Positions 2,667-52,421 of a stretch of DNA of 64,000 nt are shown here, piece after piece. Position 1 is the stretch's first letter. Every line of letters begins with the position of its first letter. The notes beneath the pieces were generated by a model. That model searched no databases. It saw nothing but the letters and a program-made list of their open reading frames with translations, and was not told the origin of the DNA. Position numbers and translations under genes: made by a program. The stretch lies in the NCBI GenBank assembly GCA_036510395.1, contig DATCDZ010000152.1, forward strand, positions 4,325 through 68,324. The letters run 5' to 3'. Origin of the DNA: Verrucomicrobiia bacterium (GTDB lineage Bacteria > Verrucomicrobiota > Verrucomicrobiia > Limisphaerales > UBA11358).

Positions 2667-4136
2667 TTATTGTGAAACCGACAGCACGTTGCCTTCATTG
2701 TCCAAGTTGATGTTTCCATATCTGACGCCGGTGACCGAATCCAGCCAGTCGGCAAAGGTGTAATCGTAAGTTGAGCGCGTGCTTGGCTGCGCGAATTGGT
2801 TGACAATCGGGCTTAATCCAAGCAAAACATCCCAACCGTCGGACAAACCGTCGCCGCTGGTGTTATAGACGTTCGGATCGGATTTTGAAACCAGCAGTTC
2901 GTAAGCATCTGTCAATCCGTCGCCGTCTGAATCTTTAGGCGTCCCTAGAATCAGGAAACACGCCGTGCTTGGCAGGTTTGTCAGGGTATAGATGTTTCCG
3001 TGGTAGCCCTGTCCCATCCACGCCCAAGGCATTCCGGTTGGGCCGAATGACAGGACTGAATTTGCAAAGACATCATACGGCACGCCGTCGGAGCCTCCCT
3101 GAATTGTGAACGTCATCGCCATTCCGCCGTTGGTAACGCTGGTGGTGACATTTGTAATCCAAATATTGGTGCTGGTGATGGCGGAAACCGAGCCGACAAG
3201 CTGCAAGCCGCCCTGTCCGGTGATGGCGTCATAATAGGTCGGCGAACCGGACGGATTTGAAGGTTCGGAAACGATGTTTTCCATCGCCGTGTTCCAAGGA
3301 TTGATCTCGTAATAGGTGTAATACCAGTCAAAAATGGTTTGAACATCGTTGGAACTCAGCGGGTAATTGTAGGTGGCCACGGTGTTGAACATCCCGTGAG
3401 CCTGATTGGTTCCACTGCTCGAACTGCCAATCCAGAACCCGTTGGCCAGAACATCGGGGCCGGGATAAACCGTCACTCCGGGGCCGTTGGTGGCCAGCAC
3501 GCCGTCCAGATACAAGGCCGTATTCGTCGGCGAATATGTCAGCGCAACAAAATGGAAATAGTTGGTCGTCCATGAAATCGGGGCGGAAAGGTAGGTCGTG
3601 ATGCTGTCAGACAAGTCGTTGGTCTGTGCGGCAAAATAAATGTTGTTTCCGCCTTCATCCACAAAAATACTCCACCAGCCATAGCTGTTATCATCCGTGT
3701 AGCTGCCGACTTCAATCAGGCGTCCGTATTGGCCCAGTCCCGTTCCGCCCGCATTCGTGCTCGACCAGGATGATGGCGCGAACCAAAAAGTAACGGTGCC
3801 TGAATCAACCGTCAGGTTTGTGGTTCCGTCATTTTCATAGACGTTATATTGCAACCAAGCCGGGACATTGGTGTCCACGACGAGGGATGAGCCGTTGCCA
3901 AGATGTGAGTAGTTTAGGTTGGTGAACGAAACCGGCGCGTAGCCGGCGTCGCTTGTCCAGTTGGTACTGTCATAAAATGACCACGAATCCAGCGGCGCGT
4001 TTGTCGGCCCATATCCACCGCCGCCGGATGGCGGCACTTGTGCATGAGCCGTCCCTGCCAGAGAATAGAGCAGCATTGCAGGGATGATCAGCCGGATTAA
4101 CTGATAGTTCAATTTAATGTGATTAACAGTTTTCAT
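2667..4136 (-). CDS. Secreted LamG/ConA-like lectin-domain protein with C-terminal Asp-rich (TSP3-like) repeats
   Basis: 489-aa ORF with an N-terminal hydrophobic signal (LIIPAMLLYSLAGTAHA). LamG-like pattern: GTVTFWFAPSSW...YFHFVALTYSPTNTALYLDGVL...GFWIGS. C-terminal DSDGDGLTDAYE and SGDGLSDGWD repeats. It stops 18 nt upstream of the start of feature 1 on the same strand. Confidence 0.75.
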   Translation of the reverse strand: MKTVNHIKLNYQLIRLIIPAMLLYSLAGTAHAQVPPSGGGGYGPTNAPLDSWSFYDSTNWTSDAGYAPVSFTNLNYSHLGNGSSLVVDTNVPAWLQYNVYENDGTTNLTVDSGTVTFWFAPSSWSSTNAGGTGLGQYGRLIEVGSYTDDNSYGWWSIFVDEGGNNIYFAAQTNDLSDSITTYLSAPISWTTNYFHFVALTYSPTNTALYLDGVLATNGPGVTVYPGPDVLANGFWIGSSSSGTNQAHGMFNTVATYNYPLSSNDVQTIFDWYYTYYEINPWNTAMENIVSEPSNPSGSPTYYDAITGQGGLQLVGSVSAITSTNIWITNVTTSVTNGGMAMTFTIQGGSDGVPYDVFANSVLSFGPTGMPWAWMGQGYHGNIYTLTNLPSTACFLILGTPKDSDGDGLTDAYELLVSKSDPNVYNTSGDGLSDGWDVLLGLSPIVNQFAQPSTRSTYDYTFADWLDSVTGVRYGNINLDNEGNVLSVSQ

Positions 4137-7916: not shown

Positions 7917-8230
7917 GCAATTTTTCATGGCGTCCGGCGCGCAACCGAGAACCTACGATTTTTCGTAGGGGTGGGGCGTCCACCTTTTAAGCTGACGAAT
8001 AGGAAGCTAAACAATTGATTAAATACCGGGCGATTAGCGTTGAATCGGAATGTTGCAAATGAATTACCACCATGATGAATTTCAGTCGGATGCAACTGAA
8101 ACGGATGATTTAGGAATCACGTTTGGGAAAGATTGAACCGGCATACGTTTCAAAACCGATGATAATTTCTTAACGGGAATTGGTGATGAAAATTCAACCC
8201 GTATATCAGCATTGATTACCGTCAGCACTG

Positions 8231-8301
8231 AATGGCCGTTTCAGAAACCGGAGCGAAACGAAACGGATGAGCAGAGGAGCGCGGTTTTTGAAACGGCCAT
8301 T
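8231..8301. repeat. 20-bp inverted repeat (19/20 match) with a 31-nt spacer
   Basis: AATGGCCGTTTCAGAAACCG (8231-8250) pairs with CGGTTTTTGAAACGGCCATT (8282-8301). Confidence 0.8.
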
Positions 8302-8332
8302 GAGTGCGTCACCGGATAGGTTTGAATCACGC

Positions 8333-20121: not shown

Positions 20122-21003
20122 GTGCAAGATTTGATCGCCAAAGCCGGAACGCTCCTCGAAGCGCTGCCGTATATCCAAAAGTTCAGCGGCGCGACCTTCG
20201 TCGTCAAATACGGCGGCAGTTTCATGGACTCGCCCGACGCCGAAATCCGCAACGGCGTCGCGCGCGACATCGTGTTTCTCGAAGCCGTCGAAATCAATCC
20301 CGTCATCGTCCACGGCGGCGGCAAGGCGATCACGCGCGCGATGGAACAGGCCGGTTTAATCGCGAATTTTATTCAAGGCCAGCGCGTCACCGACGAAGCC
20401 ACGGCAAAAATAGTGGACGACGTTTTGTCGCGCGAAATCAATCCAGACATCGTCGCAACAATCAATTCACTCGGCGGCGCGGCCGTCGGATTTTCCGGCG
20501 CGGACATTTTCAAATGCAAAAAATTGCTGCTTCACGACAGGGATAATCCCAGCAAAAAAATTGACATCGGCTACGTAGGCGAAGTCATCGAAGTCAACGT
20601 CGCGCCGCTCAAGGAATCCATCTGGTGCGGCCACACGCCCGTCATCAGCCCGACCGCGCGCGGCGAGGACGGAAAGATTTACAACTGCAACGCCGACATC
20701 GCCGCCGCGATGTGCGCGATCGCGCTCAACGCGAAACGGCTCGTTTTCTTGAGCGACGTTCCAGGACTGATGCGCGACCCGAAAAATGCTTCCACCGTCA
20801 TCGCGCATTTGCAAACAAATGAAGTGGACGGTCTGAAAAAATCCGGCGTGATTGACAAGGGCATGATTCCGAAAGTGGACAGCGCCGTCGCCGCCATCAA
20901 ATCCGGCGTGGAAAAAGTTTCCTTCGTAGACGGTTGCGTGCCGCATTCCGTCCTGCTGGAGATTTTCACGGACAAGGGAAACGGGACGGAAATTGTTTTG
21001 TGA
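20122..21003 (+). CDS. argB: Acetylglutamate kinase
   Basis: LPYIQKFSGATFVVKYGGSFM...VIVHGGGKAI...YNCNADIAAA. Confidence 0.9.
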   Translation: MQDLIAKAGTLLEALPYIQKFSGATFVVKYGGSFMDSPDAEIRNGVARDIVFLEAVEINPVIVHGGGKAITRAMEQAGLIANFIQGQRVTDEATAKIVDDVLSREINPDIVATINSLGGAAVGFSGADIFKCKKLLLHDRDNPSKKIDIGYVGEVIEVNVAPLKESIWCGHTPVISPTARGEDGKIYNCNADIAAAMCAIALNAKRLVFLSDVPGLMRDPKNASTVIAHLQTNEVDGLKKSGVIDKGMIPKVDSAVAAIKSGVEKVSFVDGCVPHSVLLEIFTDKGNGTEIVL

Positions 21004-21040: not shown

Positions 21041-22387
21041 ATGAAAGAAATTTTTCCAACACCGCCGCCGCTCGTGCAAAACCAGTTCGAGTCCGTGCGC
21101 GAATTGTTTTCCAAAAACGTCGTGCCCAGCTACGGCCGTTTTGATTTGGCGTTGAGCCACGGCAACGGCAGTTACGTCTTTGATGTCGCGGGCAAACGTT
21201 ATCTCGACCTCGGCGGCGGCATCGCCGTGAATTGTCTCGGCCACGCGCATCCGGCGATTTTGGAAGCGCTGAACGACCAAGCCAAAAAACTCATTCACGT
21301 TTCCAATTTGTATTACACCCAGCCGCAGGGAAAACTCGCGGCGGAAATCGTAAAACGCATCGGCGCGGGCAAAGTTTTTTTCTGCAACAGCGGCGCGGAG
21401 GCGAACGAAGGGCTTTTCAAAGCCGCGCGCAAATTCGGCCACGACGAGGGACGGTTTGAAATCCTGACCGCGACAAATTCTTTTCACGGACGGACGCTCG
21501 GCGGCATCGCCGCGACCGGCCAGGACAAGGTCAAAAAAGGTTTTGAGCCGATGACGCCGGGTTTCCGACATATTCCGTTCAACGATCTGGCAGCGGCGCG
21601 CAACGCGATTTCGCCCGCGACGGTTGCGATCATGATCGAAGGCGTGCAGGGCGAGGGCGGCGTCACGCCCGCGGCGCCGGAGTATTTGCTCGGCCTGCGC
21701 GCATTGTGCGACGAGAAAAAACTGCTGCTGTTCATGGACGCTGTGCAAGACGGACATTATCGCACTGGAAAATTTCAGAGCTTCCAGCGGATTTTGGAAA
21801 ATGTAGGACAGGCGTCGCGCCTGTCTCAAACTTCAAATAAAGAAAACGGAGACAGGCGCGACGCCTGTCCTACGGAATTTCTGCCAGACGGCCTTTCGAT
21901 GGCCAAGTCGCTCGGCGGCGGATTTCCGATGGGCGCGTTCTGGATGCGTGAACCGTTTCAAGATTTGCTCGGCGCGGGAACGCATGGCACGACTTACGGC
22001 GGCACGCCGCTCGCCTGCGCTGTTGCGCTGAAAATTCTTTCGGTCATCGAATCGGAAAAACTCGATGAACAGGCGCGCCAGCTCGGCGAGTGGATTTTGA
22101 GCGAATTGAAGCGGTTCGCGGAAATTTATCCGACCGTCGTCAAAAACGCGCGCGGCGTGGGCTTAATGCTCGGACTTGAACTGCAAGAAAAAGAAAAAAT
22201 TCCCAAATTTACCGCCAGCGAAAAATCGGCGGCCATCCAATTTACGAACCGTTTGCACGCGCTCGGCGTCATGGTGATTCCCGCAGGCAATCAAACGATC
22301 CGTTTGCTGCCGCCGCTGAATTTGAAGCCGCAGGAAGCGGGCGAAGGCATTTCCAAAATCGAGGAAGTCGTCAAATCGCTCGCGTGA
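21041..22387 (+). CDS. argD: Acetylornithine aminotransferase (class-III PLP enzyme) carrying an in-frame palindromic insert
   Basis: YGRFDLALSHGNGSYVFDVAGKRYLDLGGGIAVNCLGHAHP...FFCNSGAEANE...FHGRTLGG...DAVQ...AKSLGGGFPMGA. Start chosen at MKEIF. Confidence 0.88.
   Translation: MKEIFPTPPPLVQNQFESVRELFSKNVVPSYGRFDLALSHGNGSYVFDVAGKRYLDLGGGIAVNCLGHAHPAILEALNDQAKKLIHVSNLYYTQPQGKLAAEIVKRIGAGKVFFCNSGAEANEGLFKAARKFGHDEGRFEILTATNSFHGRTLGGIAATGQDKVKKGFEPMTPGFRHIPFNDLAAARNAISPATVAIMIEGVQGEGGVTPAAPEYLLGLRALCDEKKLLLFMDAVQDGHYRTGKFQSFQRILENVGQASRLSQTSNKENGDRRDACPTEFLPDGLSMAKSLGGGFPMGAFWMREPFQDLLGAGTHGTTYGGTPLACAVALKILSVIESEKLDEQARQLGEWILSELKRFAEIYPTVVKNARGVGLMLGLELQEKEKIPKFTASEKSAAIQFTNRLHALGVMVIPAGNQTIRLLPPLNLKPQEAGEGISKIEEVVKSLA
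21803..21873. repeat. Nested palindromic element (GTAGGA...TCCTAC family) inside argD
   Basis: Perfect 25-nt arms GTAGGACAGGCGTCGCGCCTGTCTC / GAGACAGGCGCGACGCCTGTCCTAC around a 21-nt loop. Each arm is itself a hairpin, GACAGGCG-TCG-CGCCTGTC. Confidence 0.9.
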
Positions 22388-51789: not shown

Positions 51790-52421
51790 TTATTCCGCCG
51801 TCAGCCGGATGATTTCGCGCAGCGGCGTCTGCGGTTTGAATTTCACGAGGCGTTCCAGTTTTGTTTTGGGGAGCGCAACCGTCCCGGTTGCCGTTCGGTG
51901 CGTCCCGCGTCGAACACGCACGTGATGGCGCATACAAATTGAAATCAGTTCGCCGTCGAAGATGCCAGTGGCGGGACGCCGTTGGCTGCGACCGGACGGT
52001 CGCGCTCCCCATTTCAATTTGTTTCCGCCGTTACTTTGATAATTTCGCGAAGCATTGTGCGTGGATGGAATTGAACAAACCGTTCCAGTCTTTTCACGAG
52101 CGGCTTGTGCGGCATATCGTCAAGGGCCGCCGGAACACGACGCGAACTGTCAACGGAAAAGCCGAGTCGCTGGTTTTTCCGACGAACGCCTTCGTTCATT
52201 CCGTTCACGCCAGTCTCAACTGCGTGGATTCCCACACGGATGTCAAAGACCTTGTTCACGATCCGCTCGGTCCGCCGGATTGCATGGCGACGCGCCTGGC
52301 GCATTAGTCCCAGCCTATGAATTTGATTTTTGAATCGGCGGATCCTGCGGCTCATTTTTTTATTGCGCGCCTTGCGACAAAGATTTAACTTGGAATTAAC
52401 GAATATGTCGAACGCTGCCAA
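51790..52421 (-). other. Two tandem Arg-rich ORFs (51790-52017, 52014-52421) sharing a conserved C-terminal ~24 aa; nature unclear
   Basis: ...KLERLVKFKPQTPLREIIRLTAE* versus ...KRLERFVQFHPRTMLREIIKVTAETN*. The upstream parts are unrelated and no family is recognised. Confidence 0.3.

Follow-up and report, generated by a model that had tools for sequence, protein, structure and literature searches.

A probable GTAG-tagged REP doublet read in frame within a length-variable loop of a verrucomicrobial ArgD

The argD gene (acetylornithine aminotransferase) of a Verrucomicrobiia bacterium contains a 71-nt palindromic element that is crossed by the reading frame without a stop. The stretch of DNA analysed here has 64,000 nucleotides (contig DATCDZ010000152.1, positions 4,325 to 68,324) and is called the window; the element lies at window positions 21803-21873 on the plus strand. 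With a probability of about 0.8, it is a non-autonomous dimer of GTAG-tagged repetitive extragenic palindromic (REP) sequences, associated with REP-associated tyrosine transposases (RAYTs), that is tolerated in a length-variable loop of ArgD and transcribed and translated with the gene. This phenomenon is already described for the GTAG-tagged REP class and for this phylum, and in-frame residence is not unusual for the family. What goes beyond the previous description (Di Nocera, De Gregorio & Rocco 2013, BMC Genomics 14:522, PMC3733652) is that the segment is absent from canonical ArgDs, that a single codon has been refilled by several doublet families and that the hairpins are strongly preserved.

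Anatomy of the doublet

The arms of the element, GTAGGACAGGCGTCGCGCCTGTCTC (21803-21827) and GAGACAGGCGCGACGCCTGTCCTAC (21849-21873), consist of 25 nt each, are 100% complementary and lie 21 nt apart; the chance expectation of a 25-mer of this kind in the window is 0.00. The left arm is a REP unit on the plus strand with a GTAG head (21803-21806), a perfect hairpin GACAGGCG-TCG-CGCCTGTC (21807-21825) and a terminal TC. It is followed by an A-rich spacer (AAACTTCAAATAAAGAAAACG, 21828-21848) and by the same unit in inverted orientation, with the hairpin at 21851-21869 and, on the minus strand, the GTAG head at 21873-21870. A previous sequence-only reading of this DNA had described perfect arms around an A-rich loop, each arm being itself a hairpin, and all of this was confirmed. 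In both arms the unpaired GTAG directly abuts the hairpin, as is typical for the GTAG-tagged superfamily, and a stem of 8 bp with a loop of 3 nt fits the GC-rich stems of 6-13 bp and small loops of these REPs. With the GTAG tags outermost, the arrangement would correspond to the head-to-head ('HH') dimer of Di Nocera et al. and be equivalent in layout to a REPIN (REP doublet forming a hairpin).

Folded as single-stranded DNA, the individual hairpins reach -9.2 kcal/mol (left) and -9.1 kcal/mol (right) and the entire 71 nt reach -34.3 kcal/mol; the minimum free energy structure is one long hairpin from arm to arm, as in the REPIN layout of inverted REPs with a spacer. An 83-nt region folded as RNA has -57.7 kcal/mol (z = -13), and a very stable 25-bp stem is thus possible. 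This stability favours an alternative explanation: the doublet could be a REP that has been domesticated instead of a passenger that is tolerated, selected for a role at the nucleic-acid level in the transcript or DNA of argB-argD-(glycosylase)-argF, for example in mRNA stabilisation or processing (as an RNase III-type substrate), in a pause of translation ahead of the active-site strand or in protein binding. We consider such selection unlikely, and one point against it is the lack of a terminator-like tail on the sense strand: the element has no terminator-like site in this orientation, and two matches on the minus strand are within chance (3 found versus 4.0 in shuffles). A function as sense-strand terminator was therefore rejected. 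An Rfam scan returned only generic hairpins of eukaryotic miRNA precursors (20-36 bits against gathering thresholds of 50-268), which we dismissed as meaningless.

No target site duplication adjoins the arms (the flanks read ...GGAAAAT / element / GGAATTT...). RAYTs are HUH/Y1 tyrosine transposases that act on single-stranded DNA hairpins, and the absence of a target site duplication fits IS200/RAYT-type chemistry. It speaks against a classical MITE, a miniature transposable element with terminal inverted repeats, derived from an insertion sequence (IS) with a DDE transposase, an origin that the long, perfect terminal repeats and the small size would otherwise suggest. Moreover, each arm is itself a GTAG-tagged hairpin, and these hairpins are also found as singletons and in tandem arrays. 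Such a MITE is very improbable.

The host gene and its read-through

The argD frame (21041-22387, plus strand; an upstream TTG at 20993, in the same frame, is another possible start) encodes 448 aa followed by a stop codon and remains open throughout the element, as had been claimed. The earlier estimate of about 27 additional residues in front of the lysine that binds pyridoxal 5'-phosphate (PLP) was exact: the variable loop segment ENVGQASRLSQTSNKENGDRRDACPTE consists of 27 codons (E253-E279, 21797-21877) between ...FQRIL and FLPDGLSMAK, as delimited by codon comparison with relatives' loci and by an alignment of 120 relatives. The presumed Schiff-base lysine, K289 in ...LSMAKSLGGGFP (21905-21907), is assigned its catalytic role by homology and lies 10 residues past the last codon of the insert; the alignment shows no variation at A288 and K289, and the segment matches the TTAK motif of solved ArgD/AstC structures. 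The frame GTA-GGA-CAG-GCG... skips the TAG of the GTAG tag and the product reads VGQASRLS...DRRDACPT; the added residues are hydrophilic (VGQASRLSQTSNKENGDRRDACPT). Probably, the segment is retained in mature ArgD and is harmless.

Around the insert the gene looks functional, with its conserved motifs retained. The window ArgD scores 393.7 bits on NF002325 (NCBIfam PRK01278; cut-off 372) and 403.3 on TIGR00707, just below the cut-off of 410.05, with the match broken in two at the insert. Its nearest named relatives are proteins of metagenome-assembled genomes (MAGs) of Limisphaerales/Verrucomicrobiae. The flanks are under purifying selection, with 18% divergence in amino acids against about 44% at four-fold degenerate sites in the comparison with one related locus (L120; loci of other genomes are labelled L and a number). 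The gene order is argB-argD-HhH-GPD glycosylase-argF, and the next gene begins 11 nt past the argD stop. The identical 448-aa protein (P0001) is present in three independent metagenome assemblies; the palindrome is thus not an artefact, such as a palindromic chimera from sequencing or assembly, and homologous alleles in many other metagenomes likewise refute this possibility.

A derived loop with many unrelated fillings

Among 100 distant ArgD representatives with parsable motifs, 85 have an identical spacing between the GRTG motif and the lysine strand, namely 17 aa from RTG to the catalytic AK. The sequence-only reading had held that class-III aminotransferases lack the segment, and this is true both for these distant orthologues and for the solved ArgD/AstC structures, which align only to residues 28-250 and 281-444 of the window protein and leave about 27 residues unmatched. 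In the wider verrucomicrobial clade (50-66% identity) the distance from RTG to AK is 25-28 aa, including a variable loop of 8 residues, and in the window protein it is 44 aa, indicating that the segment is derived and not ancestral. The gain is 19 residues over the closest relatives and 27 over canonical ArgDs. The extension of 8 residues in the clade shows that this loop region is evolutionarily plastic.

About half of the 120 closest proteins (78-100% identity) have a short loop, RILENVPGGEKFLPDG, in a protein of 427 aa, and the others have unrelated peptides at exactly this position. For a comparison at the codon level, 74 relative loci were typed and five more were added. The short allele GAA AAT GTT CCC GGC GGC GAA AAA (ENVPGGEK, 24 nt) is present in 46 of the 74 typed loci. 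Longer alleles have 33-120 nt, and every one of them is a multiple of three; a check for lengths that are multiples of three had been proposed, and it is positive for all longer alleles at this loop and negative for the 71-nt palindrome itself, which is part of a variable segment of 81 nt. All palindromic alleles begin at one codon and belong to at least six families (GTAGGACAGGCG..., GTGGGACAGGCTTCCAGCCTGTC..., GGGAGGGTCGGCG..., GTGTTGCCGGC..., GTAGCGCAGGCG... and GTAGCGCAGGCTT...). The peptides encoded by the different insert types are unrelated to each other; what they have in common is the hairpin-doublet architecture of the DNA.

This last point is difficult to reconcile with the idea that the segment is an ancestral loop or a loop with a function at protein level, for instance in regulation or interaction, to which the palindromic DNA would be incidental. 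The 8-residue extension that the wider clade already has over canonical ArgDs is in its favour. However, the segment is missing from distant and from most close orthologues, the same DNA unit is found in intergenic regions and in unrelated genes, and in one group of alleles (type A) it is the residues encoded by the REPs that are conserved, with free variation in those encoded by the spacer, the opposite of what constraint on a protein loop would cause. A protein-level origin is largely refuted and retains hardly any probability.

Not all longer alleles are palindromic. Heptanucleotide tandem repeats, such as (CCGAACT)n, (CCGAATT)n and (CCGCAAT)n, occupy the same loop in frame in L146, L194, L196 (e.g. 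L196:3669-3713), L162, L180/L181, L164 and L191; they are 24, 33 or 45 nt long, always a multiple of three, and encode peptides of the type PNSELRTPNSD. Similar 'LNSQPSTLNS' peptides occur in an Opitutus terrae entry of Additional file 3 of Di Nocera et al. (PMC3733652).

Many relatives have a further, conserved hairpin, CCCTCTCCC-loop-GGGAGAGGG, about 60-190 nt downstream of argD and at the same relative position (L147:4564-4588, L150:11432-11456, L154:6944-6968, L175:3583-3607, L152:2618-2641, L167:3511-3534, L135:11348-11372, L148:11361-11385 and L178:11433-11455). This hairpin is not present downstream of the argD of the window.

The single hairpin is the conserved unit

Compared with L120, the window allele differs at 43.6% of 165 four-fold degenerate sites and at 21% of all coding nucleotides in the flanks; the arms nevertheless match at 50 of 50 positions, and the spacer has 7 differences. 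The sequence-only reading had deduced recent insertion or active maintenance from the perfect arms, and identity to an allele this diverged bears it out. In L119 the layout is the same and the spacer homologous; in each of its two hairpins the closing pair and the loop have changed in such a way that pairing is preserved. Among eight type-C alleles, one hairpin has two stem pairs in which both partners change (6 cells; not reached in any of 500 shuffles). For the long arm-to-arm helix there is no compensatory change and its pairing is lost at the very columns where the small hairpins covary; the 25-bp stem was therefore rejected as the conserved unit, which is the single REP hairpin.

Both the identity of the arms and the compensatory double changes that keep each small hairpin would be expected under selection for a role in the arg transcript or DNA, the lack of covariation in the long stem would not. 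Arm identity could equally reflect recent re-insertion or gene conversion with the genomic REP pool. A second orthologous pair, of a gene unrelated to argD, behaves alike: in the DUF5107-TPR genes of L045 and L114, with 51% four-fold divergence, an arm matches at 25 of 25 positions and is read in an identical frame. Taken alone, this degree of preservation again resembles selection, but as it occurs in an unrelated gene it characterises the REP family rather than argD, which counts against a specific role in the arg operon. Conservation of the hairpins may stem from selection, from re-insertion or from evolution in concert with the genomic REP pool.

Turnover at one codon

A bootstrapped neighbour-joining tree of argD with the loop masked has well-supported clades with mixed loop states. 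L190, with a type-C doublet, and L191, with a 24-nt loop, are a sister pair with 100% support; L126 and L136, with doublets of two different families, are nested among four ENVPGGEK alleles (91-100% support), and the window-type allele occurs in three separate supported clades. In sliding windows, L190 and L191 share 95% identity across 1,170 nt and still 93% beside the site, and L126, L136 and L147 are 94-96% identical with three different loop states. Around the site, none of L190, L126 and L136 becomes locally more similar to other carriers of its own type. Together, these identities and the absence of a local peak indicate that the turnover at this codon is recent and local. Long recombination tracts, down to about 60 nt, were therefore rejected as the source of the filled alleles. 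Copies of the matching families are found in the flanks of carriers (a second type-C doublet in L139), and window-type copies are found near empty argD genes in L128 and L178.

Turnover may have occurred by repeated site-specific insertion, by replacement of one REP by another or by very short conversion tracts. The occupation of one codon by at least six doublet families in relatives could be taken as a sign of selection for a hairpin at this place; the hairpin is however lacking in about 60% of the typed relatives (46/74), including genes that are 94-95% identical to those of carriers.

A dispersed REP family that flanks RAYT genes

We scanned one genome per prokaryotic species for the exact 20-base core of the REP, GTAGGACAGGCG-NNN-CGCCTGTC. 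A search for further copies had been proposed as a check on the sequence-only reading, and in other genomes it was positive: the core is present in at least 118 genome stretches, mostly from Verrucomicrobiota MAGs, and among the matches listed it also occurs in Acidobacteriota, Cyanobacteria, Nitrospirota, Atribacterota and Planctomycetota, so that at least six phyla are represented. The orientation of the loop with respect to the tag is strongly polar, with TCN in 136 of the 154 copies among the matches listed. In Verrucomicrobiota the unit forms inverted doublets with common inner flanks (TCTCCATCT/TCTCTAACTT) and spacers of about 20-90 nt; it also occurs singly, in tandem arrays and in intergenic regions. 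Relatives have many copies per MAG, with several contigs each for VHDE01, CAINDV01, WYBW01 and CAWBHS01.

Copies of the REP flank RAYT-type genes in four genomes, two of which are above the curated cut-off of NF047646 (80 bits), the NCBIfam equivalog 'REP-associated tyrosine transposase'. An ORF of 176 aa that is enclosed by two inverted REP copies in Cylindrospermum (L004) scores 94.5 bits, and a REP-flanked ORF of a Verrucomicrobiia MAG (L097) scores 92 bits; the REP-flanked ORFs of two verrucomicrobial loci (L021, L092) have NF047646 as their best match, yet remain below the cut-off. That the neighbours are of RAYT-type rather than DDE-type is a further argument against a MITE. The one neighbour that might have argued for it is an IS200-family tnpA gene in L058, with about 650 nt between it and a window-type doublet; it encodes an ordinary IS200/IS605 TnpA (72 bits, NF033573), is inserted within a DNA methyltransferase gene and has no REP on its flanks, and was rejected as the cognate RAYT of the window-type doublet for the same reasons.

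About 40 of the 154 REP copies among the matches listed are inside long open frames, and in all ten intragenic copies that were checked the Pfam domains are bona fide. The hosts of in-frame copies are leucyl-tRNA synthetase (L074), Mfd (L048), IspG/GcpE (L095), alpha-2-macroglobulin (L006), peptidase U32 (L106), DUF5107-TPR proteins (L045, L114), a BioA-like aminotransferase (L055), a Reg_prop protein and an LVIVD-repeat protein. In the copies with a locus label given here, Pfam domains lie on both sides of the REP. The aminotransferase of L055 was considered as a second case at the ArgD site and rejected, being a BioA-like paralogue with the doublet about 10 residues further upstream, at GFGRTG.

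Several additional observations concern this family. In L055 (1990-2110) the doublet directly follows GFGRTG and the REP head GGT-AGG-ACA-GGC encodes G-R-T-G, which hints at microhomology between REP head and target. In L058 the window-type doublet (41-120) adjoins a C5 DNA-methyltransferase-like ORF (...FIDLFCGIGGFR...) at its 5' end, and this ORF is apparently interrupted further downstream by the tnpA (766-1296). The RAYT genes seem to hold in-frame REP-derived inserts themselves: that of Cylindrospermum (L004:3662-4192, with a REP-like hairpin ending at 3957) reads ...NRRDACST..., encoded by GTAGAACAGGCGTCTCGCCTGTTC on the opposite strand, and the matches of the RAYTs of L021 and L092 are split by about 50 extra residues, at profile positions of about 38 to 40. 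The RAYTs of L004 and L097 are only 26% identical despite their common 20-base REP core. Contigs from MAGs labelled 'uncultured Bifidobacteriaceae' (L019, L043, L088, L115) have doublets of verrucomicrobial type with identical inner flanks, which suggests that these MAGs are mis-binned or mislabelled. In one Acidobacteriota MAG the unit forms tandem arrays, head to tail and repeating about every 25-34 nt, instead of inverted doublets, and some of the arrays are in long open frames (L054:6552-6626, L038:2306-2358, L067:2873-2923, L011:7070-7126).

Origin of the argD doublet

We propose that a RAYT-associated REP dimer came to fill an insertion-tolerant loop just upstream of the K289 strand, between the helix that follows the G-x-x-R-T-G motif and the PLP-lysine strand. 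The segment would simply be transcribed and translated, in the one kind of frame that avoids the TAG of the tag, and variants that are out of frame or contain a stop would have been removed by selection; the element would persist because in-frame additions are tolerated at this loop. Its arrival, or the replacement of a predecessor, may have been mediated by a RAYT rather than by recombination between REPs or gene conversion.

Several findings weigh against this explanation. The 64-kb window contains no further copy of the element, no other GTAG-headed hairpin and no homologue of Y1 transposases/RAYTs; the one REP copy in these 64 kb compares with many copies per MAG in relatives. The element was said to have been inserted into argD, and it does lie there in frame, but the event was not a clean insertion into an ENVPGGEK allele, since the window allele (81 nt against 24 nt) has gained 57 nt (19 aa) and not 71 nt. 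PGG codons are kept in no filled allele and PGGEK is thus replaced rather than just split. A simple insertion with recognisable junctions or a target site duplication was rejected, as the junctions vary by type and the PGGEK codons are always missing. An AlphaFold2 model of ArgD, based on 49 close homologues, had a mean predicted local distance difference test score (pLDDT) of 44.6 and was unusable; surface exposure of the insert loop is suggested by its length variability and by the alignment to solved structures. Finally, to our knowledge, there is in general little direct experimental support for the mobility of REPs by RAYTs.

A bolder interpretation is that the loop is a 'landing pad' for REPs, with different REP/RAYT families repeatedly and site-specifically inserting into or overwriting the same codon, or else that the hairpin doublet is positively selected in the arg-operon transcript. 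Resident hairpins or local microhomology could be recognised at a landing pad; the REP head of L055 (GGTAGGACAGGC), which supplies the codons for G-R-T-G, would be an example of the latter. We regard this interpretation as rather doubtful. If it were true, REP sites within genes would not be rare, tolerated accidents but units that are kept up and exchanged between lineages.

The value of the locus is that of a natural experiment, with an empty allele, at least six doublet families and heptamer alleles at one orthologous site and with arms that do not change over saturated synonymous divergence. It is tractable for studies on REP movement and replacement and on selection versus concerted evolution of hairpins, and it marks a highly insertion-tolerant loop beside the active site of a class-III aminotransferase. 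It is also a warning that peptides of the type 'GQASRLS/DRRDACPT' in metagenomic proteins are repeat-encoded.

Other inverted repeats in the window

A separate inverted repeat at 8225-8307 has 26-nt arms (GCACTGAATGGCCGTTTCAGAAACCG / CGGTTTTTGAAACGGCCATTGAGTGC) that are 92% complementary and 31 nt apart. It overlaps no ORF of 80 aa or more, has no GTAG tag and is single among the inverted repeats of the window. An imperfect inverted repeat at 51922-52034 has 24-nt arms with 83% complementarity, 65 nt apart.

Relation to known systems

The sequence-only reading had compared the element with Rickettsia palindromic elements (RPEs), and the likeness is restricted to behaviour: an in-frame palindrome in a gene that looks functional. 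RPE-4 and RPE-6 have a CGTC tag and are specific to Rickettsia, and RPE-1 is longer (PMC3733652, citing Ogata et al. 2000, 2002). The argD element ends in GTAG/CTAC, is RAYT-associated and is found in Verrucomicrobiota. It thus behaves like an RPE and belongs to another superfamily, the GTAG-tagged REP/RAYT class. A literature search for RPEs and for later work on intragenic REPINs returned nothing relevant.

REPIN-RAYT systems are similar in having two inverted REPs with a spacer that can form one long hairpin, and in the REPs that flank RAYTs in other genomes. An extragenic location is part of the definition of REPINs (Bertels & Rainey 2011, PLoS Genet 7:e1002132; Mob Genet Elements 1:262), whereas the argD copy is intragenic and read through, and the covariation seen here backs the single REP hairpins and not the long REPIN stem.

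The closest relatives are the GTAG REPs of Di Nocera et al., who defined the GTAG- and CGTC-tagged superfamilies (PMC3733652) and made no comparison of orthologous sites; hence they reported neither the occupancy of one loop by multiple families nor the conservation of arms. Neither argD nor the GQAS/DACPT peptides are on their list. The GTAG REPs, whose tag may degenerate to GTRG, share with the element the GTAG tag, a GC-rich stem of 6-13 bp, a loop of 2-3 nt and the head-to-head dimer with a spacing of 20-100 bp. The sequence-only reading knew of no in-frame colonisation of genes by this element type; about 70 intragenic copies, many of them dimers that encode 15-30 aa, are listed for Opitutus terrae (Additional file 3, PMC3733652). 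More than half of the intragenic GTAG REPs are dimers or groups encoding 20-30 aa, and they are most abundant in O. terrae (PMC3733652), where, like the argD element, they are in frame within verrucomicrobial housekeeping genes. Of the O. terrae families GTAG-17, GTAG-18 and GTAG-19 (PMC3733652), the last encodes GTGVPPV/HGRDARAT peptides that parallel RTGVPPV/DRRDACPT here; the stem differs, being of the CACGGGCG type in O. terrae, as deduced from these peptides, and GACAGGCG in the window. Taken alone, the argD doublet is one more case of a documented type, namely of GTAG-REP dimers translated within housekeeping genes of Verrucomicrobiota.

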